Made by a program: the position numbers and the translations under genes
Part shown: piece after piece, positions 4,893 through 30,601 of the stretch
How positions within the stretch are numbered: position 1 is the stretch's first letter
Layout of the letters: each line of letters opens with the position of its first letter
The notes under the pieces: model-generated
Told to the model about the DNA's origin: nothing
Databases searched by the model: none
What the model saw: the letters and a program-made list of their open reading frames with translations, nothing else
Origin: Candidatus Saccharimonadota bacterium
GTDB taxonomy: Bacteria > Patescibacteriota > Gracilibacteria > BD1-5 > UBA2023
Direction: 5' to 3'
DNA length: 32,000 nucleotides
NCBI GenBank assembly: GCA_963706795.1
Contig: OY970170.1
Span: forward strand, 90,001 to 122,000

Positions 4893-4895
4893 TAA

Positions 4896-4935
4896 AAATC
4901 CCTCCAAAGCTCGCAAGAGTGAAGGAGGGTTTTTA
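4896..4935 (+). terminator. Rho-independent terminator after rpoC
   Basis: CCCTCC (4900-4905) pairs with GGAGGG (4924-4929), with an inner CTC/GAG pairing. A T-run follows at 4930-4934 and an A-run precedes. Confidence 0.8.
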
Positions 4936-4952
4936 TTATTCTATAGCCATAA

Positions 4953-9958: not shown

Positions 9959-10258
9959 ATGGATTACTCAAAAGCCAAAGATTTGCTCAAGCTCCAGCAA
10001 GAAGCACAAAAAATTCAGAACGAACTCAGCAATATCCACATCGAAGCCGAAGTCGACGGTGTAGTTATCACGGTTGACGGCCAGATGAAGATCATCGGTG
10101 TCACCATCGAAGACGAATCCATCCTCAAAGACAAAACCCGCCTCGAAAAATCCACAATGGAAGCGATCAACAAGGGTATCAAAAAATCCCAAGAAATCGC
10201 CGCAGAAAAAATGAAATCCGTTATGGGAAGTATGGGATTGAATTTACCTGGGATGTAG
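9959..10258 (+). CDS. ybaB: YbaB/EbfC-family nucleoid-associated protein (99 aa)
   Basis: Size and layout are typical of the family: N-terminal helix LLKLQQEAQKIQNEL, then EVDGVVITVDGQMKIIGVTIEDESI, then a C-terminal helix and a GLNLPGM tail. Confidence 0.8.
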   Translation: MDYSKAKDLLKLQQEAQKIQNELSNIHIEAEVDGVVITVDGQMKIIGVTIEDESILKDKTRLEKSTMEAINKGIKKSQEIAAEKMKSVMGSMGLNLPGM

Positions 10259-10277
10259 GCATCCAAAGAAGATTAAA

Positions 10278-10316
10278 AAACCCTCCGGAGCTCGTCAGAG
10301 CGAAGGAGGGTTTTTT
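10278..10316 (+). terminator. Rho-independent terminator after ybaB
   Basis: CCCTCC (10281-10286) pairs with GGAGGG (10305-10310), with inner GCTC/GAGC pairing and a T6 run at 10311-10316. It is nearly the same sequence module as the rpoC terminator. Confidence 0.8.
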
Positions 10317-10453
10317 ATATGTTTCAGATTTTAAAAACATCTTTTGCAGCTCAAATTTCAATTAAGAAAGATTTTTAAAAAATCACAAAAATAATTAAGA
10401 AATAATTAATAATCGTAATGTATACTTTGCGAGTTTTATAAACTCATCCACTC

Positions 10454-11152
10454 ATGCAGAAAATACCATTGGCATTTATTACAGTGCTTTGTCTCCTTGG
10501 ACTCACCTCATGCAACAACATTTTTAAGAATCAGACAGATAGCTGACCAGACGAAAAAGCAACAGCTATCAAAGCACTCTCGACCGAATATATAAAAAAT
10601 GTGCAGCCCGTAGACTTCTCGCTCACATATACAGGTTTTATCCTCGAACCATTTACCCAAAGCAGTACACTGACGCTCTCAGGCTGAACGATCTACAACA
10701 AAGACAAATCACAAAGCGGCATGCTCACGCAGGAAGTCTGAGCTAATCTCTATAAAAAATGATCGAACTGGTACTACGATCGATCGAATATACTCCGAAG
10801 TCCCACCGGTGATAGACAAGATCTCACCCCAGAAAAAACAGAATCCATCAAACTCAATTTTGTTCCCTGATTCACAAAAATGCGTCTCCTCTGAAAAGAC
10901 TACGCATTCAACGAAGCAAATCTCACTAAGAATGGCCAGATATTCGACCTTACAATTTCACTTAATAAATGAGAAGCTACCGTCATTCAGTTAGAAAACT
11001 CCAAAGAAAAAGCAAACCGACAAGCCCTCTTTGATGAATACGACAAAAGGGTTGCCGCCATCAAATCCAAGTACATGTCCGACCCCTACACGATGAATTC
11101 CCTCATCGACGAGCTCAACAAGGCCTACCAACTCGACGCAACAAAATTCTAA
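10454..11152 (+). CDS. Putative lipoprotein (232 aa), continuous only if TGA=Gly
   Basis: MQKIPLAFITVLCLLGLTSC is a signal peptide with a lipobox-like Cys. The frame is open to TAA 11150-11152, with 7 in-frame TGA (10544, 10685, 10739, 10760, 10868, 10892, 10970). Under the standard code no ORF of 60 aa or more appears in this frame, so the whole gene is fragmented and missed. Confidence 0.65.
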
Positions 11153-11169: not shown

Positions 11170-12300
11170 ATGAAAAAATTTCTTCTCTTTGTCGGATTTA
11201 TTCTCTCGGTATCAATCGCTCATACCTCGTTCGCAGCATCGAGTATGTTGGATTATACGTATATTGATTGTCATGCAGGAAATGACACAACTGCTGAACC
11301 ATTCAATAGTACAAAGCCTTATAACACCCTTTATGCAGGCATATACTCTAGCATCAATTATATCAACGGTTTTTGGAATATTCCTGCTCAGGCACAAAAC
11401 GTACTTGGAAAGAGATTCGTTATTAAAGTAAAGGCTGGATGCGTATTTGATGGACTGAGTCAAAATGGGTACATACCCCTTTACTTCAATGGGAATGTCT
11501 ACAAAAATGATCTACTCATAACATCATCTGATGAAAATAAAACATTTGGTGTTCAATCAATCTACCTCTATGACGGCGGGTACACAACAAGTGGCTTGGT
11601 GTTTAAAAATGTAGATTTTATGGCTTCGTTAAATAATAGTTCATATATCTATCTAAATAATTCACAATGAAGCACCATACAGAATAGTATCATTCGCTGT
11701 AAGACGTTCGCTTGTATAAATAATTCAGGCTCTAGTAACTCAAATATTATTGTAGATAATTCAATCATTAAAATCACCTCAACAAATACTGCTTGAGACA
11801 CTATTTTCCATGTGCCATGAATTATTCGAAATTCTAAAATTGAATACACAGTTGCCAATGGAGCAACAAGCCGTCTAGTATTTGGATGAATCACAAGTAA
11901 AGTACAACTTATGCTTTGAAACATTATTGATGCCTGAAATCAAGAAGTAGCGATAAGTTGACCAGATGCAATAACAAACAAATTTACGAATATCAAAAAA
12001 CTCAGTCCAGGTCCAATTTTTGCAAATAATACAGTCCAAAATACACAGCCGATTACTGTATCAAACTGACAATATACAATAAACAATGTATTTACGGGCG
12101 GATACACAGACTCCTACGATCCATCAAATCTACGTAGAAATTTTAGTTCAGCTCAGACTACAGGTGGCGTAGGTTGGCTCTATCAGAAAGCTCTTGGAAC
12201 GATGCTGGAGTCCAATTTTACTGACCGATCACTCTACCAGCAATACACAGGAAATACTATGGGTGACACAAGTTCGCCAATTTATCTCATGTTCCGATAA
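11170..12300 (+). CDS. Secreted Asn/Ser/Thr-rich protein (376 aa), possibly a parallel beta-helix
   Basis: Signal peptide MKKFLLFVGFILSVSIAHTSFA. Track ORF 11170..11670 extends through 8 in-frame TGA (11668, 11794, 11818, 11887, 11917, 11935, 11959, 12067) to TAA 12298-12300. Recurrent turns such as IQNSIIRC, VDNSIIKI and IRNSKIEY suggest beta-helix coils. That fold assignment is inference only. Confidence 0.7.
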
Positions 12301-12341: not shown

Positions 12342-15300
12342 ATGTTTTCGCTCAAGAGGAATATTTCATGGATTACAATCGGCACGGTATTGTCGCTGGT
12401 CATCAGTTTCAATGTATTTGCCGTAGACTACGCAAATACAATCGGAATATATGGGACTTGATTCAACAATACACTGGATGCTGATGCCAATCTTATTTCG
12501 TCCGATTATTTCACGGGATATGTCGGGGATTACTGAACCAAGTACACTCCTCCACTATTCAATCCAGAGGAATCAAATCTCGTGATGAGTAATTTTACTG
12601 GGGTAATATGAGACTACGGAAGCAAATTTTTGCTTACAGAAGCATCTGGAAGCCTACTAAGCATAAACGATTTCAAGGGAACAATTGGTGACTATGGTTC
12701 AAAATTTGATCTCAATCTTCCAACAGGCCCACTACTCAGTTTCAATCAGTTCACTGGTAGTATCTGAGACTATGGTACTCAGTTTAGTAATACCCTCGAT
12801 CCATCAGTAAATTTATTACCTAAGGCAAAATTTACTGGTTATATTGGTGCGTATCAGGACGCCCCTCGCCTTTCGCAGTTCACCTCAGGTCGCGTAGACA
12901 AGCTGGATTTTCAGCTTGCAGCCGCTTCATCCGATCCCGAAAGCACAAAATGAATCCGCACACCAAATATTCATGCGGCAAAAAAACAAATAACAGAAGC
13001 GAGAAATGAGGTTGATCCCGTAGAGCTCTCCACAGGAGAATTCGTCTACGATAATACCCTCATGCAGTTCCCAAGCACGGGACTTGGGTACAATTTCAGT
13101 ATCAAATACCGCTCGCAGGTATCGTTCACTGGATCACTGGGTTATAATTGGACACACACATATGACAGAAAACTCTATCAGAACGCTGATGCCTCGGTAA
13201 CTTACCAAGATGGCGATGGAGCAATGCATACTTTCAAACCTTCGAGTGATGGATACGAATACCTCACTGGGTACGAAGCAAATCTCTCAAAGACTTCGTC
13301 TGGAGGATATTTGATCACATTCAAGAACGGAAACACAGAAACCTTCAACGATCAAGGTCTTACAACTCAGAGTGCAGATGCGAACGGGAATACTCTCACG
13401 TATTCGTACAACACACTCGGACAACTCACACTCGTACAAGATCGTTTCGGACGCACTGCGACATACGAATATACCGCTGCAGGATATATCTCTCGGGTAA
13501 CTGACAATACTGGAAGATCCGTGATACTTGCTTACTACGACGGAACAACCGCGGATGGATACGACGGAGATCTCAAGTCCATCATCTTGCATAATTCTGA
13601 AACGAGTGAGAAGACGATCGGATTCACGTATTTCAAATCCTCAGATCCAAGCCTTGCACACAACCTCATCTCACTCATCGATTCGAAGGGGCAAATCTAC
13701 GTCACAAATACATACGATACCAACGACCGCGTCCTCTCACAACACTACGGAGACGGGACTGGAAGCTTCGAATACACACTCGCAGATATCCATGCCGACG
13801 ATACACCAGCAAGCATCGGAAGCGGTGCAGTGATCGGGCAATATATCGTGAAAAACCATGCCACTGACAAGGAAGGAAATATCACTGAGTACACATACAA
13901 CCGCCTCGGTAATGTCATCAAGAAGGAAGTATTCGCAAAAGATGGTACAAGTAGCAATATCACCCGCTACACCTACGACACCGTTTGACGCATCACTGCC
14001 GAGATTTTCCCACGTGGGAATGGAACGGCATGGGGATACAACACTGCAGGTAAGAAAATCGAAGCACGACAGAAATCAGATATTTCAGCACCAAACAATG
14101 ACTCGCAGGATATCATCACACGATATTCTTACGATGCTACGACGAACAAACTGCTTACCACTACCCTTCCAGACGGCAGTGTCATCACAAATACATACGA
14201 CTCACGAGGCAATCTCACACGAGTCACTCAGGGCGGCGTAGTTCTCGCTCTTGGAGGATCGATGAACACGATCGCACAGGCATTTGTATACTCAGACCGC
14301 GGAGAAATACTCTCGACACAGGACGCAGAGGGGAACTTCACACAGTTTGCGTATTCGGGTGCAAACGTGATCCAAAAAACAACTGGATCATGAGCGAGTA
14401 CCATCACAGAATCATATTCCTATGATACTCACGGGAATCGCACCAGTCTCAAAGATGGTGAAAATAATACTACTGCCTACGAATACGATCCATTCGATCG
14501 TCTCATCTCAACTACCAGTCCAAAGTGAGTTCGTACCGAATACGGCTACGATGCGAACAACAACCGCCTCTTTGAGCGAGTACTCATGGGTACTGGTAAA
14601 ATTACCCAGACTCAATACACCTATGATATCCTCGATCAGGTCATCACAAAAACATCCGACATCGACACAACTCACACGCTCGCCGAGCGCACCACCTACA
14701 CGAAGAACGGAAAACCAAAAACCCTCACGATCGAAGGAGGTCCAACTAAGACATTTGTATATTCTCCAGATGAGAAAATCATCTCCGAGACCCTGAGTGC
14801 ATCTGGGATGACTTCAGCGGTCACGACCTACGAATACGATGCAAACAGCAATCCGATCAAGATCACTGATCCGCTCGGACGTATTACACGATCAGAATAC
14901 GATGGATTCGATCATCTGATCAAGACTATTTCACCAAGTGGAGTGAATACACTCTATAGCTATGACGTGCTTTGAAATCTCTCAAAAACTGAGACCCTCT
15001 CCCCTACTGGAGTTCGTCTGAGCCTGAGTGAAACCGTGACAAATTCTCTGAAGAAACCACTTGCGCAAACCCTCTACCAACTCGACATTCAAGGGAATGT
15101 TATCGCCTGAGCTGCGCACCGTACTCAGAAGTTCGCCTACAACAAAAACTCAGCCGTCATCCTCGAGACCAATCCACTTGGGGGAGTTACCAGCTCACAG
15201 TACAATTCACTCGGACAGCTCACGAGCAAAGTCGACCCCACGAATACCACGACCACCTATGCCTACAATCCTCGCGGTCTTGTCGCTCAGGAAACTACGA

Positions 15301-18122
15301 GTCTTTCTGGTGTAACACAGACTCGCACCACCTATGGATACGATCTCGACGGTCGCATGATCCAGTCGACTCGCTACGATGATCAAACTCCCGTCACAAC
15401 GCAGGTGACCTACGATGCGCTTGGTAATCCCCTCTCCCAGACCGACCCAGCAGGCAATATCACAACCCGCACTTTTGACCTGCGTGGTAAACTCCTCTCT
15501 GAGTCACAGAGTCTCTCAGGTGCACTCGTAACTACCAGCTACGAATACGATATCCTCGGCAACAAAACCAAGCTCATCGATCCAAAGTGAAATGCCACCA
15601 TCTACACCTACGACGGATTCGGTCGCAAAACTCAGGACACGCTTCCTGATGGATCGAAGACGTATTTCACCTACGATCTAGCGAACCAGCTCACCCAAAA
15701 GATCGACCCTAATGGTTCGGTATTTCATCAGACCTTTGACCTCGAAGGCCGCCTCACCGAGCGCACGATCGAGCGTGCCGCAGGTGTTGCAGGTGTAAAT
15801 AGTGAAACCTTCACCTACGACGCCCTGGGACGACTCACGAACACGAGCGACAACCTCGGTCACACCGTCGCACTCAAATATGATTCCCTCGGCAACAAAC
15901 TCGAGGAACTCAGCAACGGTCGCACGATCACGAACACATATAATCCTGCAGGAAATGCCCTCACGATAGGACTTCCTTCTGGCAAAAATATTACTCAGAC
16001 TTTTGACAATATCGGTCGTCTCACACATGTCGCAACGAATACTGGAGCGATTATCGACTACCAGTTTTCGGGAAATACGCTCACGAATACTCTCTACGGT
16101 AATGGAGTTACCCAATCACGCACCTACGATGGACTCATGCGTCTGGGGTCACTCAATGCAACCGCTTCATGAGCCACGAATATCAACCGCATCTACACCT
16201 ACGATAGCCTCGACAATATCCTCACTGATAGCCAAAGTACACACACCTACGATGCACTTTCTCGCCTCACGAGTTCGACTTCGAGTGTCCTTCCTATGGC
16301 CACTTCGAGCTTCAACTACGATATATCAGGCAATCGTACTACGCAACAAGCAACCAATGCACCACAGACGCTCTACGAGACTAATACACTCGATCAATAT
16401 ACTACCCTCTCAGGTACGAATACCGGCGTACTTCGTTATGATCTCAATGGAAATCTCCTAGAAAATACTCGATTTGTCTTCGTATATGATGCTCACAATC
16501 GACTGGTTTCGGTGAGCGAAAAGGTGGTAGATATCGTACCTCCTGCGACTGGAAGTGGCTCGACGGGAACTGGTTCTACTGGAAGCGGAGAAACCAGCAC
16601 GGGTTCTACGAATTCGGGAACTACAAACGAAACAGGAACTGGAACATGATCAACTGGAAGTGGATCGACTGGATCGGGAGAAATCCTTCCAGAGACGGGA
16701 ACTGGAAGTGAGAGTGGGACAGGTTCACAGAATTCTTCAGGAAGTACGTCATCAGGTATGACTTCAACGGGCGGGACACAGACAGGAAGCACCGAAACAG
16801 GATCGACTTCAACAGGTTCAACAGAAAGTGGTAGCACTTCCCTACCTGAGACGAATACAGGCGGGACTTCTACTGGTGAAACTGGAACAGGAAGTGGTAA
16901 TCTCACAGGCTCAGGCGTATCTGTCATTCCTGAGGTAGTGACAATCGGTTCAATCGAAGAAACGGGGACTGGAACGAATACTGGAAGTGGATACGCACTC
17001 CGACTGGTCGCCACATATAGTTATGACACTCTTGGTCGAAGACTCAGTAAGGATGTTGGACCAAAGCATGTAGAATATGCATATTCAGGAGAACAGCTCA
17101 TGTTTGAACGTGTGAGTGAGAATGGAGTGAGTGTAGATGCTGAATATGTATACGGTATCGGAGGAATGGACGATGTAATAGCTTCTGTGTCTTCTTCTGG
17201 AGATGTGAGGTATTTCTTACATGATCATCTGGGATCGACGGTTGGAGTGATGGATGGAAGTGGAGGGATGATTCAGGAGTATGCGTATGGAGTATTTGGG
17301 GATGTGCATGTGAAGAGTGGAAGTGGAGGGTTTGTGAGTGGTAGTTCGCTTATTACTTCGAGACTATTCACTGGAAGAGAATATGATGCGGAGACTGGAT
17401 TGTATTATTACAGAGCAAGAACGTATGATGCTGCTTTGGGTAGATTCTTGCAGAGAGATCCGATTGGGACGGATGATCAGGTGAATATGTATACGTATGT
17501 GAGGAATAATCCAATGAAGTGGGTTGATCCGAGTGGGATGAGTACAAAAGAGTTTATTGCAAAACACGATGCAACATCACTTTTGGAAAAATATATGAAT
17601 GATGCGCGAGACGAACTTAGTTTCGGATGAGTATTTCCAAAATGGGGGTACTCACAAATCGATTATGGCGTATGATCATTTTCAGCAAAAAAATGGAACA
17701 TAAAATATAACGTAGATTTCCAGACTCTTGCATTTGATCCTTCGAATAACAATCAATCTTGTGCGACCTATGGAAATAATTGAGCATGATGATGCAAAGT
17801 ATACATTGAGTGAGAATCTGTCGAACTCTCAGAATTATGAAATTTTCTAATTTGATATAATTGAGTTTACGCAGGTTATACCCTAAACGATCCTGATAAC
17901 GTTGCAGATATTTATAAATCGGGGATGTTTGTAGAATACAATTTAACAAATGAAAAATGAACAGATAGAACAAGGGAAGCTGCACTAAACGATGAGCTAC
18001 AGGATCGCAAATGGTATGATATTGGCTACAAAAAATGAGCCAGGGAAATGACTGCAAAATGGGGATTTCAGAGAGATCAAATATCACTCAAAGAGGCTAT
18101 TATTTATTGAAACACCCGCTAA
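12342..18122 (+). CDS. Rhs/YD-repeat polymorphic toxin with an N-terminal Sec signal peptide (1926 aa)
   Basis: A single frame (codon starts divisible by 3) is open from ATG 12342 to TAA 18120-18122 when 25 in-frame TGA are read as Gly. Signal peptide MFSLKRNISWITIGTVLSLVISFNVFA. There are dozens of YD repeats (YxYDxxG[RN]L). The Rhs core end reads RFLQRDPIGTDDQVNMYTYVRNNPMKWVDPSGM and is followed by a 193-codon C-terminal tip (CT1, 17541-18119). Confidence 0.9.
12432..12890 (+). repeat. Six tandem repeats of about 26 aa, F-[TK]-G-x-[IV]-G-D-Y-G-[ST]-[KQ]-F, in the Rhs N-terminal region
   Basis: The units are TIGIYGTGF, FTGYVGDYGTKY, FTGVIGDYGSKF, FKGTIGDYGSKF, FTGSIGDYGTQF and FTGYIGAYQD. 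Equivalent Gly positions are encoded by GGN in some units and TGA in others (12459, 12534, 12609, 12765). Confidence 0.8.
16545..16992 (+). repeat. Gly/Ser/Thr-rich low-complexity insert (about 150 aa) inside the Rhs repeat region
   Basis: Degenerate short tandem DNA repeats (actggaagtgg/tcgac-type) encode TGSGSTGTGSTGSGETSTGSTNSG...GTSTGETGTGSGNLTGSG. They lie between YDAHNRLVSVSEK and ATYSYDTLGRRLSK. The minus-strand P/V-rich ORF 16493..17014 is its antisense shadow. Confidence 0.85.
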
Positions 18123-18123
18123 T

Positions 18124-18399
18124 ATGAAACAATCATTAAAGAAAATCAGAATAGCAATAATCTATTTGCTTGTAGTATTGCCGTTTCCATTTATTTATTA
18201 TGAATTGGGAATTTTCTTATTTACATTTAGTTATCAACATATCTTCATTTGTTCAACTCCAATGGGATATTGTGGCGAAGAAGAAATTAAGAGTCTGTTA
18301 TTTTCAATAGTCACAGCTACAATATTTATCTCAGTAATATATTACTTGGTATTTCGCATACTAAAGTGATACATCGATAGCAAATCAAAAGACATATAG
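18124..18399 (+). CDS. Small membrane protein (91 aa); candidate immunity protein for CT1
   Basis: The ATG lies 1 nt after the Rhs TAA (cgcTAAtATG). Hydrophobic segments IAIIYLLVVLPFPFIYYELGIFLFTF and LLFSIVTATIFISVIYYLVF. It reads through TGA 18367 to TAG 18397-18399. Confidence 0.6.
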
Positions 18400-18419
18400 G
18401 TATATATTGGACAAAGATT

Positions 18420-18890
18420 ATGCAAAAAATTACATTCCTTCTGTTTAGCACTCTTTTAGCACTAGTACTTATTAAGTTTACTTTTAGTTTATTCAAGGAA
18501 AGCCCTGTTAACCTTGCCATAACAACAAATAATACTGATGCTCAGACTTTAGAAGGTTTTCTTGCAGAGCTCAAAGCCTCTGGACTTATTTGTGAGGATA
18601 GCGGACAAGTAACTTTTTATATCTTGGATAATACTAAGTCTAAGGTAGTAGGTAAGGCGACCTGAGATACAGAATCAAAGATCATAGGAATGTGCAAGAA
18701 ATATTGAATTGCCGAAATATGGAAACAGAATGATTATATACTCTTCTCAATGCTTGGTCCTATTAGATGACATGGATTTCTACGTTACTATTCCGATAGG
18801 ATTCCAAAAGATATACAAGACAAAGGAGTAGACGGCGAGCTCAAAGCAGTAAATTCGAATTGGATACTTGTTACACCAACTCCAAATTAA
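18420..18890 (+). CDS. Signal-anchored or secreted protein (156 aa), second gene of the CT1 cassette
   Basis: Begins MQKITFLLFSTLLALVLIKFTFSLF. Track ORF 18420..18665 extends through TGA 18663, 18705 and 18768 to TAA 18888-18890. No family recognised. Confidence 0.55.
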
Positions 18891-19918
18891 GACAGGCGCT
18901 CAGCAAAAAAACTGAGGATGAAGTAAATACAACTACTGAGTATGTATACGGTATCGGAGGAATGGATGATGTAGTAGCTTCTGTGTCTTCTTCGGGAGAT
19001 GTGAGGTATTTCTTACATGATCATCTGGGATCGACGGTAGGAGTGATGGATGAGAGTGGAGAGATGATTCAGGAGTATTCGTATGGAGTATTTGGGGATG
19101 TGCATGTGAAGAGTGGAAGTGGAGGGTTTGTGAGTGGTAGTTCGCTTATTACTTCGAGACTATTCACTGGAAGAGAATATGATGCGGAGACTGGATTGTA
19201 TTATTACAGAGCAAGAACGTATGATGCTGCTTTGGGTAGATTCTTGCAGAGAGATCCGATTGGGACGGATGATCAGGTGAATATGTATACGTATGTGAGG
19301 AATAATCCAATGAAGTGGGTTGATCCGAGTGGGATGAGTACAAAAGAGTTTATTGCAAAACACGATGCAACATCACTTTTGGAAAAATATATGAATGATG
19401 CGCGAGACGAACTTAGTTTCGGATGAGTATTTCCAAAATGGGGGTACTCACAAATCGATTATGGCGTATGATCATTTTCAGCAAAAAAATGGAACATAAA
19501 ATATAACGTAGATTTCCAGACTCTTGCATTTGATCCTTCGAATAACAATCAATCTTGTGCGACCTATGGAAATAATTGAGCATGATGATGCAAAGTATAC
19601 ATTGAGTGAGAATCTGTCGAACTCTCAGAATTATGAAATTTTCTAATTTGATATAATTGAGTTTACGCAGGTTATACCCTAAACGATCCTGATAACGTTG
19701 CAGATATTTATAAATCGGGGATGTTTGTAGAATACAATTTAACAAATGAAAAATGAACAGATAGAACAAGGGAAGCTGCACTAAACGATGAGCTACAGGA
19801 TCGCAAATGGTATGATATTGGCTACAAAAAATGAGCCAGGGAAATGACTGCAAAATGGGGATTTCAGAGAGATCAAATATCACTCAAAGAGGCTATTATT
19901 TATTGAAACACCCGCTAA
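18860..19918 (+). CDS. Orphan Rhs fragment 1: last ~130 aa of the Rhs core plus a toxin tip identical to CT1. No ATG start; probably silent
   Basis: Homology to the main gene begins at EYVYGIGGMDD (18940). The fragment contains the DPIG...DPSGM core end and then the same tip as 17541-18122. The frame is open only from 18800, the first ATG is internal, and TTG 18860 is the only possible start. TAA stop at 19916-19918. Confidence 0.6.
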
Positions 19919-19919
19919 T

Positions 19920-20195
19920 ATGAAACAATCATTAAAGAAAATCAGAATAGCAATAATCTATTTGCTTGTAGTATTGCCGTTTCCATTTATTTATTATGAA
20001 TTGGGAATTTTCTTATTTACATTTAGTTATCAACATATCTTCATTTGTTCAACTCCAATGGGATATTGTGGCGAAGAAGAAATTAAGAGTCTGTTATTTT
20101 CAATAGTCACAGCTACAATATTTATCTCAGTAATATATTACTTGGTATTTCGCATACTAAAGTGATACATCGATAGCAAATCAAAAGACATATAG
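19920..20195 (+). CDS. Duplicate copy of the 91-aa membrane protein (candidate CT1 immunity)
   Basis: Translation is identical to 18124..18399 at offset +1796. Confidence 0.6.
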
Positions 20196-20215
20196 GTATA
20201 TATTGGACAAAGATT

Positions 20216-20686
20216 ATGCAAAAAATTACATTCCTTCTGTTTAGCACTCTTTTAGCACTAGTACTTATTAAGTTTACTTTTAGTTTATTCAAGGAAAGCC
20301 CTGTTAACCTTGCCATAACAACAAATAATACTGATGCTCAGACTTTAGAAGGTTTTCTTGCAGAGCTCAAAGCCTCTGGACTTATTTGTGAGGATAGCGG
20401 ACAAGTAACTTTTTATATCTTGGATAATACTAAGTCTAAGGTAGTAGGTAAGGCGACCTGAGATACAGAATCAAAGATCATAGGAATGTGCAAGAAATAT
20501 TGAATTGCCGAAATATGGAAACAGAATGATTATATACTCTTCTCAATGCTTGGTCCTATTAGATGACATGGATTTCTACGTTACTATTCCGATAGGATTC
20601 CAAAAGATATACAAGACAAAGGAGTAGACGGCGAGCTCAAAGCAGTAAATTCGAATTGGATACTTGTTACACCAACTCCAAATTAA
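20216..20686 (+). CDS. Duplicate copy of the 156-aa signal-anchored protein
   Basis: Translation is identical to 18420..18890 at offset +1796. Confidence 0.55.
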
Positions 20687-21699
20687 GACAGGCGCTCAGC
20701 AAAAAAACTGAGGATGAAGTAAATACAACTACTGAGTATGTATACGGTATCGGAGGAATGGATGATGTAGTAGCTTCTGTGTCTTCTTCGGGAGATGTGA
20801 GGTATTTCTTACATGATCATCTGGGATCGACGGTAGGAGTGATGGATGAGAGTGGAGAGATGATTCAGGAGTATTCGTATGGAGTATTTGGGGATGTGCA
20901 TGTGAAGAGTGGAAGTGGAGGGTTTGCGAGTGGTAGTTCGCTTATTACTTCGAGACTATTCACTGGAAGAGAATATGATGCGGAGACTGGATTGTATTAT
21001 TACAGAGCAAGAACGTATGATGCTGCTTTGGGTAGATTCTTGCAGAGAGATCCGATTGGGACGGATGATCAGGTGAATATGTATACGTATGTGAGGAATA
21101 ATCCGATGAAGTGGGTTGATCCGAGTGGGATGAAAGGGAAACCAGCTACGCCTGAAAGGAAGTATGATGTAACTGAGATGGTGTTGTTTATATACGATTT
21201 ATCCCTAGAGAATACCGATTGATTTAATTTTTTTGTATTTAAGGAAGGTACAAAAAATGGCTGAGCTTTTGACATCAAAAGAAACTCATATATAGCTACT
21301 ATGGCAGCAAAGAATAATGGTATTGTTTACTTCGATTGACAAGCAGTTGAGCCTTCTAATTTAGGAAATTTGTTAGCAGGATTAAATATGAAGAACAGTT
21401 ATTTACCATCTTCATTGGTACGTAATAAGTTTATGGAAGTCGAGATAGACAATGCAACTAACGAGTGATACTGAAAATACGCGGAAGAAATTGCTAAATA
21501 TGATGAGCATAGTGATGAGGTTTGGTACGATGCATGAGAAAATATTTACAACACTTACACCAATGCGAGTACCAGGCAAGAAAAAATAGACACTATTCGA
21601 AATGCAATAACAAATACAACTCCAGAATACAAGAGGCGCTCAAACGAAGAGGGAGTAAAAAGAAAGTATTACAAAGATTTAATCAATAACCAAAACTAG
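20656..21699 (+). CDS. Orphan Rhs fragment 2: Rhs core end plus a divergent toxin tip CT2 (188 codons)
   Basis: The core piece is the same as in orphan 1 up to VDPSGM, then new sequence: KGKPATPERKYDVTEM... It continues through TGA 21220, 21262, 21337, 21466, 21472 and 21535 to TAG 21697-21699. CT2 shares motifs with CT1 (VYFDGQAVEPSNLGNLLAGLN vs VYIEGESVELSELGNFLIGYN; WYDAG vs WYDIG). Confidence 0.65.
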
Positions 21700-21702
21700 C
21701 AT

Positions 21703-21933
21703 ATGAAATTACTACGATCTTTTAGCACTGTAAGCATCTTTATTGTTGCGTATCTAATCACTTACAAAATCTCCTATCTTGCCATTCATAAATATATATT
21801 TCCATTCAGGTATGCTGATGATTTAGATTCAGTAGTACACAGTAGCCTACTTGCATTTTTTATATCAATTTTATCTGGATTTTTTCTAGCCTATCTTGTG
21901 TATAGAAAACTTACGCATCAAAATCGAATCTAA
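21703..21933 (+). CDS. Small two-TM membrane protein (76 aa); candidate immunity for CT2
   Basis: The ATG lies 3 nt after the CT2 TAG. Hydrophobic segments VSIFIVAYLITYKISYLAI and LLAFFISILSGFFLAYLVY. TAA stop. Confidence 0.6.
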   Translation: MKLLRSFSTVSIFIVAYLITYKISYLAIHKYIFPFRYADDLDSVVHSSLLAFFISILSGFFLAYLVYRKLTHQNRI

Positions 21934-22326
21934 GGGGATGTGTATATGAAGAGTGGAGGTGGGGGGTTGTAAGCAATGGAGTCAGCCTCATTCATTTGAA
22001 GAATAGTCTGTCAAAGTGAAACATTTTCTGTGGATAGTATTTATGATGGCGGACTAGAGATTGAGAAAGTTGGTTATGCAAAATACAATCCAACGTTATC
22101 GAGAGATCAAATAGAGCAACGAGCGCTGGCAGATGAGTTACCAGATCGTGCTTGGTACGATGTCTGATACATGTATGCCACAGGACAAAAAGAAGGTACT
22201 ATCAGTTTATCAATGTCTAATGCAATGAAAGTAGGAAATAAAACTAGTAAAGATCAATTAACAAGAGTAAATCAACTAATAGATCAAGCATGCTGATCAA
22301 ATCAGCAATGTCGTCTATCTCATTAA
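21934..22326 (+). pseudogene. Degraded orphan 3: a ~34-nt stub of the Rhs core (GDVYMKSGGGG) followed by the C-terminal part of a third toxin tip (CT3)
   Basis: ggggatgtgtatatgaagagtggaggtgg resembles the core sequence ggggatgtgcatgtgaagagtggaagtgg (GDVHVKSGSGG). There is an in-frame TAA at 21970. The downstream frame encodes ...RDQIEQRALADELPDRAWYDV[TGA]YMYATGQ..., homologous to the CT1 tail REAALNDELQDRKWYDIGYKKG. TAA stop at 22324-22326. Confidence 0.6.
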
Positions 22327-22336
22327 TTTAAATTAT

Positions 22337-22645
22337 ATGCGTAAATTTATTTCTATCTTTGCGAAGTTCTGCCTGTTCCTAATTATTCTTTTTGAAGCTG
22401 GAGGATTTGTGTTTCGTACTCATGAATACATTGCAACTAAAATACTAATGTTATATCAGCCTGATACATTGTATTATGGCCATGGATTTGAAATTGGCAT
22501 TGTATCAGGCCTACTCCTCTGAATCCTCTGAGTTTACTGATTCACAAAAATAGATAAGAAACTAACGGATCGATACTGATTACTTCCTGATGTATTAATT
22601 ATTGCAGTTACCTTTGCGTACATTTGAATGAGGATTTGGCTATAG
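22337..22645 (+). CDS. Small three-TM membrane protein (102 aa); candidate immunity for CT3
   Basis: Track ORF 22337..22522 extends through TGA 22520, 22529, 22538, 22577 and 22625 to TAG 22643-22645. Hydrophobic segments FAKFCLFLIILFEAGGFVF, IGIVSGLLLGILGVYGF and LLPDVLIIAVTFAYIGM. Confidence 0.55.
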
Positions 22646-22693
22646 CAATAAATTTAGAATAAAAGGATTGGGGCAATCGAGAGTATGAGTCAC

Positions 22694-22736
22694 TAAAAAA
22701 AATCCCCGCAACTCTCACGAGTTGCGGGGATTTTTT
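22694..22736. terminator. Bidirectional terminator between the Rhs locus and the convergent peptidase operon
   Basis: Perfect 12-bp stem: TCCCCGCAACTC (22703-22714) pairs with GAGTTGCGGGGA (22719-22730), loop TCAC. Flanked by A8 on one side and T6 on the other. Confidence 0.9.
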
Positions 22737-22741
22737 CCTCC

Positions 22742-23968
22742 TTATCCATTCATCGCCCGATAAATCAAACTCGCAACCTCACCTCTTGTGAGTGGTGCAT
22801 TAGGGTTGAAACTTGCACCGGACTCCAATGCATCATTGTCATTCGCCCAAACTATGTGCGGGAAGAACCAGTCGGTTGTCTTTACGTCGGGGAATGGTGA
22901 AGTTGCTGGCGTGCCAGGTTGTACACCAAGAAGTCCGAGGACAATTTTAAGACCTTCTACGCGAGTCACTGGAGCATTAGGTCGGAATGTACCATCTGGG
23001 TAGCCACCGACCGTTCCAAGGGCATGGGCGGTGTTTACGTATGACAAAAATGCATTGCCGACAGGTACGTCCGAAAAGTATGTGGTCGTGTCGTTTGTGA
23101 GGGATTTCTTAGAGGCATTAAATGCCATCTTGAGGATCTCTCCCCTGCTTACATTCGCATTTGGGAAAAATCGACCATTCTGGCCTGATGCGATACCATG
23201 ACTCTTGATAAAAGCCACTGCCGGAGCATAGAGATAGCTCGGTGATACATCACTAAAAAGTACATCATCATCGCCAGAAGTCACTGGAGTGGTAATCGTG
23301 ACCGTACTTGCTACTTCAACGGTTGGCTTCGGTGGAGTGACTACTGGAGTCGCGATGGGCGTGACAACTGGAGTGGGAACAGAAGGAGTCGGCGATCCGC
23401 CAACACGATCCAAAAATACGAGTGGATTCACTGTATAACGCACGCCGTTCTCGATACCAAGACCGCGATTTACTGCTTCCATAAAGCCGAGTCCGAGGGT
23501 TTGTGCATCCTTAAAACTAAATGGCCAATACGGATGAAACGGCGCATCCGCAACATCGATCTGAAAATGCAGATGTTCACCAGTCGACTGACCAGTATTG
23601 CCGGTTTTACCGATGATATCGCCTTCTTTGACTGTTTGCCCTTTGGTTACAGAGAGCTCTGAAAGATGAAGATAATTTGAGTAATACGTCGCTTTTTTGC
23701 CAGTTGCGGGATCGAGGACATTGTCGTGTTGGATCACTACAAAATTCCCATCTGCGGCATTCGTTCCTGCGGCAAATATTGTGCCATTAAGTACTGCATG
23801 GATCGGATCATTCGGAGACATTGGTACGATATCGACACCAGGATGGCTTCCAGAATTTTCGTCGTAGTCGCCTGAGACGTAATTGCCGAGATAGACCGTT
23901 GTGTAGGTCATAAAGAGTGTCGCGAGCTTCGTTGGATCGTAGGGTTTTGGTGTTCGGATTGGGTACAT
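22742..23968 (-). CDS. M23 family metallopeptidase with three C-terminal SLH domains (408 aa)
   Basis: M23 motifs HPGVDI and GEHLHFQI, then a P/T/V linker, then three S-layer-homology-like repeats (FSDVSPSY...FFPNANVSRGE; FSDVPVGN...GTFRPNAPVTRVE; FPDVKTTDW...FNPNAPLTRGE). No in-frame TGA. No recognisable signal peptide at the N-terminus, and a TAA lies 9 codons upstream of the ATG. Confidence 0.85.
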   Translation of the reverse strand: MYPIRTPKPYDPTKLATLFMTYTTVYLGNYVSGDYDENSGSHPGVDIVPMSPNDPIHAVLNGTIFAAGTNAADGNFVVIQHDNVLDPATGKKATYYSNYLHLSELSVTKGQTVKEGDIIGKTGNTGQSTGEHLHFQIDVADAPFHPYWPFSFKDAQTLGLGFMEAVNRGLGIENGVRYTVNPLVFLDRVGGSPTPSVPTPVVTPIATPVVTPPKPTVEVASTVTITTPVTSGDDDVLFSDVSPSYLYAPAVAFIKSHGIASGQNGRFFPNANVSRGEILKMAFNASKKSLTNDTTTYFSDVPVGNAFLSYVNTAHALGTVGGYPDGTFRPNAPVTRVEGLKIVLGLLGVQPGTPATSPFPDVKTTDWFFPHIVWANDNDALESGASFNPNAPLTRGEVASLIYRAMNG

Positions 23969-24010
23969 AGCAAGAAAATTATCACAGCAATATTAGTCTA
24001 TAATGCACAC

Positions 24011-24844
24011 TTATCGAATCGATTTCATCGGAACATTTGCAAATCCGGTCTGATCTTGGATTTCTTCTGCCGAAGGATTTTTTTCGGAAGCACTCGCAGA
24101 CTCGATAATCGGAGTATCGATGACCGGAGGGGCTACCTGAGTGGACGTGGTAGTCGGAGTTTGTACATCAGTCCTGAGAGTAATGCGATCCATAGTCGCT
24201 GTCGTTTGCACACGATTTTTGAGATCTTCTTTTTGCTCTGGAAGCGTTGCCGAAAATATCTTGTCTGCGAGCCGATCAAGCCATGCAATAAATTTGTGGC
24301 TCGAAAATCCCGCTAAAAATGTAAATACGGCGTACATATAGATACTCTGGATGCTGATATCACTCCCAACAGCAGAAGCTCACTGGAGGACACCAAGACC
24401 GCTTCTCGCGATAAAAAATGCGATGATTCCGAGTACACTCGAGAGTACTGGCTGGATAAAGAACCAATAGACCCAAGTATGATTAAATCGCCCAACATAG
24501 ACTTCAACCGGCACAAGACGTTGGAATTCGGTATTTGAGATATGCCCTTGTACATAATCACCGTAAGCGACCGTGTAGATATTTGCGTATTTTACACTCT
24601 GATAGAAATCCTTAATCATAAATGACACGCCGCCCAAAATAGCCACCGAAAGCATCAGACAAATCACCTTCACTTCGCGCACTACGCTCTCAGGGAGCGT
24701 ATTTGTGCCAGTCAGTGAGAAGAAACGATTGATATCAAAGGCTACGGAATAGATCGCAACGCGGTATGCAATATACAGGAGCAATCCAATCCACAGGATG
24801 ATGACGAGCTTCGCGATGGTATTTTTTAGTTCGAAACGGTTCAT
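24011..24844 (-). CDS. Four-TM membrane protein with a Thr/Pro-rich C-terminal tail (about 277 aa)
   Basis: It joins track ORFs 24380..24859 and 24011..24337 (same frame) through the TGA codon at 24380-24382. ATG 24844 (MNRFELKNTIAKLVIILWIG...) is preferred over TTG 24859. TAA stop at 24011-24013. Confidence 0.65.
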
Positions 24845-26916
24845 GTGGCTGTGGTTCAAAGAATAGAGCCTTCTGGCGTATCTTCCGTGATTTCTGATGG
24901 ATTGATGCGAAATTTATAGTCATCTTCTACAAATCTTCCCTTGAGTGCCGAGAGACAGCGTACCATATTTTCGTGCCAATTTTTAGGACTCGAAGCATAG
25001 ATCGGCTTGTCCTTGTTGCCCCATCGTGAGAGATCACTGAGGTTTTGGTATTTACCGAGGAATTTATTATCGAGTGTCTTCCCCATCCAGTAGATACCAT
25101 CTCGTGGTGAGATAAAGGCAGAAGTATCGCCCGAGTCAGTATTGCCGATATTACCAATATTGTACTGTGTTTTGAGGCTGCGGCCAAGACCAGTTTCAGC
25201 AAGTCCGATACACATGAGGAAACTTGGATCGATCTTCGCCTCGACCGCTTCTTCGGTCCACACATCCCAACTCTGAAAATCAGAGGAAGCATAGGTCTTG
25301 AGGAGATATTTTTGACGATCGATTTCAGTATCACCAACGATAGAGAACGTATTGTATTTGTCTGTATTGGCCATGTATCCGTAGCGGAGCTTGAGGTCTT
25401 CGACAAATTTATATTTGTACTTAGTAGCGAGCGACTCAAATCGGAGCTTTGTTAGGTCGAGGAGACGGAGTGGATCGATAGACTCGCGATTTTTATGAAC
25501 TTCAAAATGTACATGAGCTCCACTCGTCATGACTCCCGCACCCTTCGTTCCTGGTGCCCCACCGGACTTTGCAAATACCTGACCCTTATCAATAAAGTCG
25601 AATTTCTTGGCTGTGATTTCGCTGACATGTCCATAGACCGTTACATAGCCATTGGCATGCTTGAGTGCAACATAACCATACCCCTTGAGCGTTGGCTCAT
25701 TGATGTAATAGACATATCCTGGAGCTGGCGCAACAATGTCGGTCGATTGATCAGCTGGAATATCAATCGCTTCATGTTCTGACCCGACAGATGCGTAGTA
25801 GTCAGCATCATGGAAATATGCAGAAACATATTTTGGCGCAACGGGCCATTCAAATGGATTGGCGACTGTATCATCAAATCCATGATCTCTGAGATTTTTT
25901 TCTGCGTCATAGTATGACTTGAGGTCAGCACACTGAATATTCTTTTTGTCTACGATCACGCCTCCATCAGTACTAAGTTTACAGTGGTGTCGATCAGCTA
26001 CTTCGCGGAATGCTCCATCATAAGCGCTGATTGCCGCTGTTAAGCGATCCTCGACTTTTTCTTCTTGGGCTTGATGCTCGGAGATATATTCATTAAATAC
26101 AGATTCTTGCCCCTGAGTGAGTTCGAGAAGCTGGAGTTTGTAGCCCTTTTGTTCATCGAGTTCGACTCGCTTGGTCTCGAGGTCCTTTTTAAGAAGAATA
26201 ATCTTGTTTTTTTCTTCTTTGAGCTCAGCAGTTCGGACATAGTAGTCCTTTACGAGCGAACGACGTTCTTCGATGAAATTCTGTCCCGTGATCTCGAGGA
26301 CGGACTTAAAATGGATATCTGAGAGAATATCCGAGAGATTTCCATCTGAGAGCACGAGCGTACGGATGACATCGACCTTGTCCTCACCGTCATAGACCAT
26401 ATCCCCCTTGGAATAAATATATGAGAGATATCCAAGAATTGCCTCTTTATTTGAATCGATTTTTTCTTGAAGGACAGCAATATTGCGGATCGTATCAGCG
26501 ATATTTTTGTTTTTATCTCGGATCATTTCTTCGGTATCAGCAACTTTTTGCTCGTTTGCGGCGATATCCGTATCGAGCTCTGCAAGCATGCTAGTGAGCG
26601 TAAACTTACGAGTCGTTACGGCGAGTTTTTGTTCTTTGAGCGAGTCCTTCGCATCAGCAATTCGCTGCTTCATCTGCTCGAGAACGCGGATTTGAGATTC
26701 GCTGTCAAAGATTCCGTATTCTTCTTGTGCGGTAAATGGCGCATTTTCAAAGAGGATTTCTTTTTCGCTGTCCTTAAAATTATCAAGGATCTGAGCAGTC
26801 TTTGATTTTTTGATCCCAACGAAGCTGTTGGGATCTTCTCCTGCAAAAACCTGATATCAGATAGTGCTAAAGAGCGTAGTGAGCGTTATCGCAATGGCGA
26901 GTGTTCGACGGAACAT
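24826..26916 (-). CDS. Secreted coiled-coil M23 peptidase with an extra C-terminal lysozyme/glucosaminidase-like region (about 696 aa)
   Basis: Track ORF 24856..26673 extends upstream through the TGA codon at 26857-26859 to ATG 26916, giving signal peptide MFRRTLAIAITLTTLFSTIGYQVFA. In-frame ATGs at 26943 and 26973 are alternative starts. It extends downstream through the TGA codons at 24856-24858 and 24841-24843 to TAA 24826-24828. There is a long coiled coil, M23 motifs HEAIDI and GAHVHFEV, and a C-terminal IGLAETGLGRSLKTQYNIGNIGN region. Confidence 0.8.
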
Positions 26917-26978
26917 GTGGATTGGTTTTGTTTGTGTATTCATGGCTTTAGCAATACTAGCACAGTATCCCATGGAGT

Positions 26979-27007
26979 TCAAAAAAACTCCTTGACGGAG
27001 AGGAGTT
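26979..27007 (-). terminator. Terminator-like hairpin on the minus strand, just upstream of the peptidase gene
   Basis: The minus strand reads AACTCCT-ctccgtca-AGGAGTT followed by T7. The plus-strand arms are 26986-26992 and 27001-27007. A second copy of GGAGTT at 26974-26979 could form an alternative pairing with 26986-26991. Confidence 0.55.
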
Positions 27008-27009
27008 CT

Positions 27010-27439
27010 GTGTTGTTGTGACTATAATTGCCTGCCTCAGTGGTTACTGAGTTTTACCTCCTCCCAACTCCACATACTCATCCGTATTTTTTTCGTTTGC
27101 TGTGGAACTCGCAAGCCTCTCGTGATGGAGATCGCCCTAAGTCCTGTTTTGTGAATTAACTGACTTTAGAGCCTTTGCTCGCACAGTCCTCGCGGCACTG
27201 CAAGAAATCGGATGATATGGGAGTGGGAGTGTGAATGAAAGAAGTTTCAGTTATTCAAAACTCTCTAATCTTCCATCGCAGCGCGGCCGTGATCGATCCG
27301 ATTTCTTTTTGTGCAGTGAGGCACCTAGACAACGAGGAAGGTTTTATTAATCAAATCTCTACCCTTGTCGAACAAACAAAAAGAAACGGACGATCGCGTG
27401 ACAGCGAGAAGCAATAAGATTCAGGAACAGCAAGTTCCC
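27010..27439. other. Unassigned structured noncoding region of about 430 bp (candidate ncRNA or leader; strand unresolved)
   Basis: No convincing ORF under either code. A 20-bp interrupted long-range helix pairs 27061-27083 (ctcccaactccacatactcatcc) with 27210-27229 (ggatgatatgggagtgggag). A local hairpin lies at 27036-27051. A perfect TATAAT sits on the plus strand at 27023-27028, and a minus-strand terminator lies at 26979-27007. Confidence 0.3.
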
Positions 27440-30033: not shown

Positions 30034-30601
30034 CGTTCTGTATTACTGGTACCTGGAATGTAATATCCATTTCATCCACTCATCACCATGGGCGTATTTC
30101 TCGGGTGATTTCAACTCCACCAAAACTCTCGGCGAGTGCACGACTTCAGATATTTTTTTCGAGACATCGGTGCATCACACTCTGATACTGTGGATAGGTC
30201 TCGTGCATCCATTTGAGGATCGCAGCATATGCCTCAGATCCATATCCCCTACCCTGAAACTCAGGCGCGAGCCAGAGCCCAATCTCCGGTCCATCGGTAT
30301 CATGAAAATGAAGCCCAATCGTCCCAAGAAACTCGTTAACCGAAGTAGTATAAATAAATCGACTCAGTGCCTTCTTGTAGAATTCTTTTTGGATTTGCCC
30401 TTCTAAGAAGATTTTCTCGGCCTGAATATCTGCTGGAATGTTATAATTTACAAATCGATCAACATTCGCCCTCACAAATTTACCGTACACCTCAGCAACA
30501 TTCTCCGTATGAAACGGCACCAAACGAAGACGCTCAGTCGTGATAATTGTCTTCCAGGTGGTATCTGGATGAAATGTAATGTGAGGCGGAATATTACGCA
30601 T
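30023..30601 (-). CDS. GNAT-family N-acetyltransferase, RimJ/RimL-like (192 aa)
   Basis: ERLRLVPF...LGTIGLHFHDTDGPEIGLWLAPEFQGRGYGSEAYAAILKW is a typical GNAT core. Track ORF 30146..30601 extends through the TGA codons at 30146-30148, 30083-30085 and 30080-30082 to TAG 30023-30025. This restores the expected C-terminal ..EKNI[G]SRALAESFGGVE.. segment. Confidence 0.8.

Follow-up and report, generated by a model that had tools for sequence, protein, structure and literature searches.

The rhs locus described here lies in a 32,000-nucleotide stretch of the genome of a Candidatus Saccharimonadota bacterium of the BD1-5 lineage (contig OY970170.1, forward-strand positions 90,001 to 122,000; this whole stretch is hereafter the window). 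The 3' part of the locus contains two head-to-tail units of 1796 bp that do not differ at a single base. Three copies of the Rhs core end delimit them, and the middle copy is a hybrid of the outer two. Within each unit lie a copy of CT1, the variable toxin domain at the C terminus of the main Rhs protein, and the two genes downstream of it. We consider it probable that one recent, homology-mediated unequal exchange between the core of the main gene and the core of an orphan toxin cassette made this tandem duplication and that the duplication is present in cells. The evidence for this origin and for the other histories that have to be weighed is set out below, together with what the locus reveals about the toxin and its recoded host.

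Three core copies and two identical units

The 3' end of the Rhs core is present three times, at intervals of 1796 bp: at the end of the main gene (copy A), in orphan 1 (copy B), and in orphan 2 (copy C) (Table 1). A repeat finder reports a segment of about 300 nt three times, at 17117, 18913, and 20709 (spacings of exactly 1796 and 1796), and together with a base-by-base comparison of the window with itself at an offset of 1796 it gives a homology of 402 bp in A, B, and C, matching the roughly 400 bp proposed in an earlier annotation of this DNA (the sequence-only reading). In the offset comparison, similarity is weak until about 17139 and is then broken by nine isolated mismatches between 17144 and 17283. 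Identity follows without a break from 17284 to 19130 (1847 bp), mismatches occur at 19131 and 19309, and similarity ends after 19337. The segments 17284-19079 and 19080-20875 are identical at 1796 of 1796 positions, with 0 mismatches, and a perfect 1.8-kb repeat cannot have arisen by chance.

A three-way table of the copies locates the hybrid. B agrees with C and differs from A at nine core sites (17144, 17171, 17178, 17198, 17243, 17257, 17258, 17266, and 17283), and it agrees with A and differs from C at 17335 (equivalent to 19131 and 20927) and 17513 (equivalent to 19309 and 21105). Beyond 17542, 19338, and 21134, A and B continue together into CT1 and C departs into another toxin domain, CT2, the divergence beginning one base past the Met codon of the core-end motif; throughout CT1 and both genes that follow it, B is identical to A and different from C. 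Over the 402-bp homology, identical bases number 391 between A and C (97.3%), 393 between A and B, and 400 between B and C, and the differences between A and C are graded, with nine in the first 140 bp and two in the next 260 bp.

Copy B has one switch point only, from C-type (at the nine sites and in the unique flank upstream of them) to A-type. It falls between 19079 and 19131, somewhere in the 51 bp over which the three copies do not differ. The sequence-only reading had put the exchange point at 19080-19130, had listed the same nine and two informative sites, and had described about 1.65 kb of identity between A and B from 17284 onward, including CT1 and both downstream genes. It had also named an exact self-alignment as the comparison that could overturn this pattern; the pattern holds to the base. 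When one unit is deleted in silico, what remains is exactly main-CT1-imm / orphan-CT2-imm, and the resulting orphan is the present copy C. The array has the full make-up of a tandem duplication, with two identical head-to-tail units, three repeat copies, and a hybrid middle copy with a single switch. No inverted repeats or site-specific recombination signatures were found flanking the duplication unit.

Table 1. Features of the rhs locus and sequences diagnostic of its arrangements (window coordinates)
Feature	Position	Strand	Description
Lipoprotein-like open reading frame (ORF)	~10457-11152		In the rhs island, upstream of rhs
Secreted ORF	~11170-12300		~380 aa; in the rhs island, upstream of rhs
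Main rhs gene	12342-18122	+	1926 codons with TGA as Gly; RHS_repeat, DUF6531, TIGR03696
Copy A	17140-17541	+	Last 402 bp of the main Rhs core, ends ...NNPMKWVDPSGM; recombination substrate
Duplication unit 1	17284-19079	+	1796 bp: core 3' part, CT1, 1a, 1b, orphan-type core 5' part
CT1	17541-18122	+	Toxin tip of the main gene (variable C-terminal domain), 193 aa; GC 0.35, 12 TGA codons
Immunity candidate 1a	18124-18399	+	91 aa; hydrophobic at residues 5-35 and 54-81 (two regions, three overlapping windows); immunity by position only
Immunity/accessory candidate 1b	18420-18890	+	156 aa, N-terminal signal or anchor
Copy B	18936-19337	+	Hybrid core fragment, orphan 1; 5' 144 bp orphan-type (as C), 3' part main-type (as A)
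Duplication unit 2	19080-20875	+	1796 bp; Logan contig L002 matches both units at 100%
Exchange window	19080-19130	+	51 bp shared without mismatch by A (17284-17334), B, and C (20876-20926); the duplication join point would lie somewhere inside
CT1'	19337-19918	+	Silent CT1 duplicate on orphan 1; no in-frame ATG before the core, no export signal
Duplicate of 1a	19920-20195	+	
Duplicate of 1b	20216-20686	+	
Copy C	20732-21133	+	Core fragment of orphan 2, the presumed ancestral orphan
CT2	21133-21699	+	Toxin domain on orphan 2, CT1 family, ~30% identity
Immunity candidate 2	21703-21933	+	76 aa, two hydrophobic helices
Decayed third orphan	21934-22326	+	35-nt core remnant, in-frame stop, C-terminal half of a third toxin (CT3, 21976-22326) of the same family
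Immunity candidate 3	22337-22645	+	102-aa membrane protein
M23/SLH ORF	22742-23965		408 aa
Diagnostic 53-mer, A-type (G...T)			GCGTATGGAGTATTTGGGGATGTGCATGTGAAGAGTGGAAGTGGAGGGTTTGT
Diagnostic 53-mer, hybrid B			TCGTATGGAGTATTTGGGGATGTGCATGTGAAGAGTGGAAGTGGAGGGTTTGT
Diagnostic 53-mer, C-type (T...C)			TCGTATGGAGTATTTGGGGATGTGCATGTGAAGAGTGGAAGTGGAGGGTTTGC
Diagnostic 53-mer, reciprocal deletion (toxin switch)			GCGTATGGAGTATTTGGGGATGTGCATGTGAAGAGTGGAAGTGGAGGGTTTGC

Origin of the duplication and competing histories

The exchange that we favor would have started from the order main-CT1-imm1 / orphan-CT2-imm2 / decayed orphan 3, or A-X-C-Y, where X denotes CT1 and its two genes. In such an ancestor, A and C would have been direct repeats of 402 bp, 97.3% identical and spaced 1796 bp apart. 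Pairing of copy C on one chromosome with copy A on its sister, followed by an exchange of strands within the 51-bp identical stretch, would give as one product A-X-[C5'/A3']-X-C-Y, the arrangement of the window, in which the join is a hybrid core with an orphan-type 5' part and a main-type 3' part. The unseen reciprocal product, [A5'/C3']-Y, would carry the main gene fused to CT2 and would have lost X and the CT1 immunity candidates. A single exchange is the most parsimonious account because there is one switch point and because removal of a unit restores a clean main/orphan locus; and since the units show no differences, so that no later mutation is required at any base, the event would be very recent. 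Its consequences would be a second copy of CT1 that is promoterless and signal-less, a doubled dose of the two downstream genes, and a set of three direct repeats able to revert or delete the duplication.

The sequence-only reading had called this one recent unequal crossover that duplicated the CT1/immunity cassette. The second half of that statement agrees with the two identical units, which contain CT1 and the two downstream genes. The first half stands in part: a single exchange can be mapped and is the best account by parsimony, but RecA-independent slipped misalignment yields the same product. Since a RecA-type crossover and replication slippage or template switching leave the same sequence, we can only weight them, and we give about two thirds of the weight to the RecA-type crossover in view of the length of the homology (402 bp) and its embedded position.

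The most serious competing account is that the duplication was made by the assembler. The organism would then have only main-CT1-imm / orphan-CT2-imm, the A-X-C loop would have been walked twice, and no molecule would carry copy B. Public Logan contigs from run ERR12037365 bear on this question. One of them, L002, equals 17483-19024 (and 19279-20820) and another, L001, equals 21075-27302, both at 100% identity to the window, with L001 starting 30 nt before the C-specific site 21105. Together they confirm three linkages: that of the A/B-type core end to CT1, that of X to the orphan-type 5' part of the core, and that of the C-type core end to CT2. These contigs are k = 31 unitigs whose headers carry no depth and which end exactly 30 nt from variant sites. 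Because they break at those sites (L002 ends at 19024 and L001 starts at 21075), the assembly graph is really tangled at the core copies, which speaks for an artifact.

Several observations weigh against a duplication present in cells. A double traversal of the loop predicts exactly the observed sequence, down to the byte-identical units and a hybrid switch in the longest stretch that all copies share. The Logan contigs fit one unit as well as two, since a k of 31 is below the 53 nt needed to span the 51-bp window, and copy number is resolved by no independent assembly. That two units exist in cells, and not in the assembly alone, is our inference. Neither the ancestral nor the reciprocal arrangement turned up in another genome or sample, and an exact 50-mer of the exchange window has no match in GTDB species-representative contigs or JGI metagenome contigs. 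Finally, tandem duplications are unstable, so that fixation in a consensus genome needs recency, selection, or luck; in Salmonella they are lost at up to 10% per generation (PMC3967940).

We nevertheless regard an assembly artifact as unlikely. The window shared by the copies is just 51 bp, and any k-mer or read of at least 53 nt separates the hybrid from the A and C paths; because common assemblers exceed this length (final k of 55 to 141, or long reads), the hybrid join would need real reads. Assemblers typically collapse perfect repeats rather than multiply them. In both NCBI and ENA, the source record consists of one contig of 1,267,896 bp, in which all three copies are entered as separate proteins, and a single 1.27-Mb contig for a candidate phyla radiation (CPR) genome of about 1.3 Mb usually points to a long-read or curated assembly, in which single reads would span the 3.6-kb array. 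With the four diagnostic 53-mers listed in Table 1, reads from the source population can be tested for variants in copy number and for toxin switches.

Two further histories accept the duplication as real and seem to us very improbable. In the first, an older duplication was homogenized by gene conversion, so that the pattern in copy B reflects conversion tracts and not the original join. The gradient of differences between A and C would fit earlier conversion, or exchanges that recurred close to the 3' end, and the decayed third orphan speaks for a longer history of the array. Conversion would, however, have had to erase every difference over 1796 bp, spare the A/C differences in the flanks, and stop exactly at the unit boundaries, whereas a single event without later mutation accounts for the same data.

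In the second, which we find about as hard to credit, the window shows an intermediate of selected amplification, an array of one, two, three, or more units kept for the dosage of the immunity genes or for its potential to rearrange. It is true that the duplicated segment contains complete immunity candidates, that an unstable duplication in a consensus genome hints at selection, and that duplication of the locus to retain immunity has been invoked in the Salmonella model (PMC3967940), but no deletion between A, B, and C gives main-CT2 with the CT1 immunity set kept. The same enumeration led us to reject the idea that the duplication prepares for an immunity-keeping switch of the Salmonella type: recombination of A with C deletes both copies of X, and recombination of A with B or of B with C restores the ancestor. 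Because the possible deletions have only these outcomes, the duplication does not serve that purpose.

The Rhs protein, its toxin tips, and their recoded host

That the main gene encodes a genuine Rhs toxin, as had been claimed from sequence, is supported by profile searches. From the N terminus onward, its product consists of a hydrophobic signal-like segment, IGDYG repeats, a DUF6531 plug, a YD-repeat shell, the Rhs-associated core, and CT1. Pfam finds RHS_repeat (PF05593) in 12 stretches (E = 2.2e-79) and the N-terminal plug DUF6531 (PF20148, 1.9e-14) at residues 225-298. The Rhs-associated core TIGR03696 is matched at 1.3e-25 in the main protein and 4.2e-26 in the orphan, over profile positions 1-76 of 76, and ends at ...PMKWVDPSGM; the core-end motif PxxxxDPxG[LM], which marks the boundary to the variable toxin, is found in the main gene and in the orphans alike. 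The hydrophobic segment (residues 8-31) is compatible with a Sec signal, and Pfam detects neither PAAR nor VgrG in the Rhs protein. On account of this N terminus and the lack of PAAR, we describe the main Rhs as WapA-like in layout.

Two parts of the protein are unusual. About six repeats of the form F(T/K)G.IGDYG(S/T)(K/Q)F follow the signal-like segment (approximately 12429-12852, Rhs residues ~35-175); they have no family match and may be a surface-attachment or receptor-binding module. Directly before the C-terminal core lies a low-complexity insert of about 160 residues rich in Gly, Ser, and Thr (TGSGSTG...; approximately 16527-17007, Rhs residues ~1400-1560), which is unusual in an Rhs shell and is kept in a related rhs gene from another metagenome (contig L007, SRR33902047). 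The best-conserved stretch relative to that gene is the core end, which makes the core end a natural recombination substrate. At its positions 690-725, which fall between window positions 17318 and 17319, L007 has a 36-nt in-frame insertion that repeats GGAAxTGGAGGGTTT. Because this insertion sits within the equivalent of the 51-bp exchange window, the short G-rich segment may itself be prone to slippage.

All three toxin tips, CT1, CT2, and CT3, belong to one family, of which they are divergent members. Their GC content is 0.34-0.37, against 0.47 for the core, and each is followed by small membrane ORFs; the ATG of 1a lies one base past the rhs stop codon. CT1 and CT2 have in common the motifs NNG..VY..G..VE.S.LGN.L.G.N, E.E, and DE..DR.WYD.G. 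Orphan 2 (20732-21699 with 21703-21933) and orphan 3 (21934-22326 with 22337-22645) both have the composition of orphan cassettes. In the orphans, the first in-frame ATG falls within the core homology and a signal sequence is absent. The core remnant of orphan 3 (21934-21968) is 35 nt long and 89% identical to 17298-17332, that is, to a segment inside the 51-bp exchange window. The small ORFs after the tips are presumed to encode immunity proteins, and as those that follow each cassette are small membrane proteins, they hint at a target in the envelope or membrane rather than at a cytoplasmic nuclease.

The family of CT1 is sparsely represented in databases. CT1 has no Pfam match at 0.01 and no NCBIfam family at threshold, and 1a and 1b match no Pfam or NCBIfam family. 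The candidate that came closest was Ntox44 (PF15607), which CT1 matches with 15.0 bits (E = 0.032); a homologue, P0009, scores 20.7 bits (E = 5.5e-4) and another, P0002 (with W read as G), 13.1 bits, over the same part of the profile. All three scores lie below the Pfam gathering threshold of 24 bits, and we do not assign CT1 to Ntox44, which serves here only as a lead to distant relatedness. A CT1 profile search of PDB sequences returned nothing under E = 0.1, and a Foldseek search of the PDB found no match for an AlphaFold2 model of CT1 (pLDDT 71) that was built from an alignment mistranslated with W for G. CT1 has one near-identical database entry, a Logan translation of the same sample. 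Among 1.84 billion representative proteins, only 16 are relatives of CT1. An Rhs core end precedes several of the 16, and most are rich in Trp and poor in Gly, being code-25 genes translated with code 4.

The host had been labeled a code-25 CPR bacterium, a label that we can support on two grounds: TGA falls on conserved Gly, and the relatives of the RpoC encoded in the window belong to a recoded lineage. With table 11, the rhs gene is broken into contiguous in-frame pieces; when TGA is read through, these become the one ORF of 12342-18122. In-frame TGA codons stand on the conserved Gly of YDTVgR, YDVLgN, DPKgN, and SPKgV and of three IGDYG repeats, and in orthologues on two related contigs (L003 and L004) TGA lies opposite Gly and never opposite Trp, in small counts. 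The nearest relative of RpoC (96%) is labeled "Patescibacteria group bacterium"; the best named matches, at 77-61% identity, are without exception either "Candidatus Gracilibacteria bacterium" or old BD1-5 bins entered as "uncultured bacterium (gcode 4)."

TGA usage sets the cassettes apart from the rest of the locus. The proportion TGA/(TGA+GGN), compared between 17541-22645 and the host regions 873-4889, 12342-17540, 22742-26973, and 30594-31943, is 0.60 in CT1, 0.46 in CT2, 0.33 in the CT3 fragment, 0.45 in imm3, and 0.25 in 1a/1b, against 0.00 in rpoC, 0.07 in the Rhs core, and 0-0.07 in other host genes (including leuS and the M23 genes). GC content is 0.28-0.37 in the cassettes and 0.44-0.48 in host genes. 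From the low GC content and the high use of TGA for Gly, the tips and immunity genes have the look of imports from a recoded donor lower in GC and rich in TGA; and since TGA encodes from a third to over half of the toxin glycines, a cell with the standard code would be unable to express the cassettes. GC skew is about -0.2 at 15-16 kb and +0.3 at 17-22 kb, with the flip at about 17000, where the cassettes start. We take the flip to track imported AT-rich, G-over-C cassette DNA and not to mark an origin or terminus of replication.

The rhs island (about 10.3-22.7 kb) is absent from L003, the closest relative contig (RpoC 96% identical; Patescibacteria metagenome-assembled genome Deming_bin.574), which is syntenic on both sides of the island. 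Between the equivalents of 10257 and 22935, L003 holds instead, at its positions 17504-22330, a 1054-aa minus-strand protein and a TPR protein; because the whole island is lacking there, L003 gives no ancestral state of the array. Two terminator-like hairpins of 47 nt (AAAAACCCTCC...GGAGGGTTTTT), 83% identical to each other, stand at 4893-4939, after rpoC, and at 10274-10320, after a small gene (9959-10258) and at the left edge of the island. The window contains no tRNA genes, no Rfam matches, and no recA, and scans of it for promoters and terminators were not informatively above shuffled expectation.

Relation to known Rhs systems and significance

The closest precedent is the duplication described for E. 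coli K-12, which would make the event in the window ordinary Rhs behavior in a new host lineage. In E. coli K-12, recA-dependent unequal crossover between rhsA and rhsB gives the tandem duplications from which the name Rhs derives (Lin, Capage & Hill 1984, as related in PMC2935791). As far as that account goes, Rhs-core direct repeats mispair there as would have happened here, a tandem duplication arises between them, and a hybrid repeat forms at the join. The two cases differ in scale and setting. The E. coli repeats, as related in the same source, are whole rhsA and rhsB elements that lie far apart, and the duplication is large (the glyS region) and was recovered under selection, whereas here repeats of 402 bp lie 1.8 kb apart within one locus and the duplication measures 1796 bp.

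The sequence-only reading had likened the event to the recombination of Salmonella rhs orphans. In Salmonella Typhimurium LT2, the main gene recombines with an orphan over 522 bp at 95% identity, and in the resulting chimera of main 5' part and orphan C-terminal domain a silent toxin is expressed and exported; duplication of the locus before recombination has been proposed, so that the main immunity gene is retained (Koskiniemi et al. 2014, PMC3967940). The substrates are indeed alike: in both cases they are the main gene's 3' core and the homologous piece of core kept by an orphan downstream, which here share 402 bp at 97.3% identity. The product is not: the hybrid in the window belongs to the reciprocal class, with an orphan 5' part and a main 3' part, and no main 5' part fused in frame to an orphan C-terminal domain is present. 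Since the main gene still ends in CT1, no toxin switch has taken place. The outcome is a second silent CT1 with its own immunity candidates, nothing new is expressed, and no competitive phenotype is implied.

The array also resembles those ascribed to C-terminal displacement, in which newly arriving tips push old ones downstream and orphan arrays build up (Jackson et al. 2009, PMC2935791; Poole et al. 2011, PMC3150448). As in those arrays, a GC-richer core is joined to AT-rich tips, and truncated tips follow in tandem with downstream genes of their own. The truncation is progressive here, orphan 2 retaining 402 bp of core and orphan 3 only 35 bp. Orphan 1 is the exception, in that it is a fresh internal copy of the current tip and not an older tip that was displaced. 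With the WapA proteins of Bacillus subtilis and Streptococcus suis, Sec-dependent YD-repeat toxins of monoderm bacteria (PMC12704120), the main Rhs has in common a signal-like N terminus in place of PAAR or VgrG, a YD shell, a variable C-terminal domain, and a small downstream gene, here one presumed to confer immunity, and a BD1-5 homologue (P0056) is named "Wall associated protein" in the database. Unlike in WapA, wall-binding domains were not detected here, and the N terminus bears the IGDYG repeats.

The locus reveals no new mechanism, and its product is an unselected-looking class of duplication, not a toxin switch. If the duplication is real, it means that exchange between a core end and an orphan fragment, the defining behavior of Rhs elements, also operates in a recoded CPR genome of about 1.3 Mb. 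The event would have been caught early, with its join mapped to 51 bp and free of later mutations. To our knowledge, the interbacterial toxin biology of the CPR is almost undescribed. Specialists are likeliest to be drawn to the cassette-specific use of TGA and to the near-restriction of the toxin family to recoded lineages. A bolder interpretation, which we hold to be a long shot, is that toxin/immunity cassettes of this kind circulate only in TGA-recoded bacteria and that the duplication captures one moment of a toxin array that is actively rearranging and varies in copy number within a natural population of Gracilibacteria. If such a recoded-only cassette pool were true, the window would offer the first traceable shuffling of Rhs cassettes in an uncultivated recoded episymbiont or predator, and the genetic code itself would be a barrier confining toxins.

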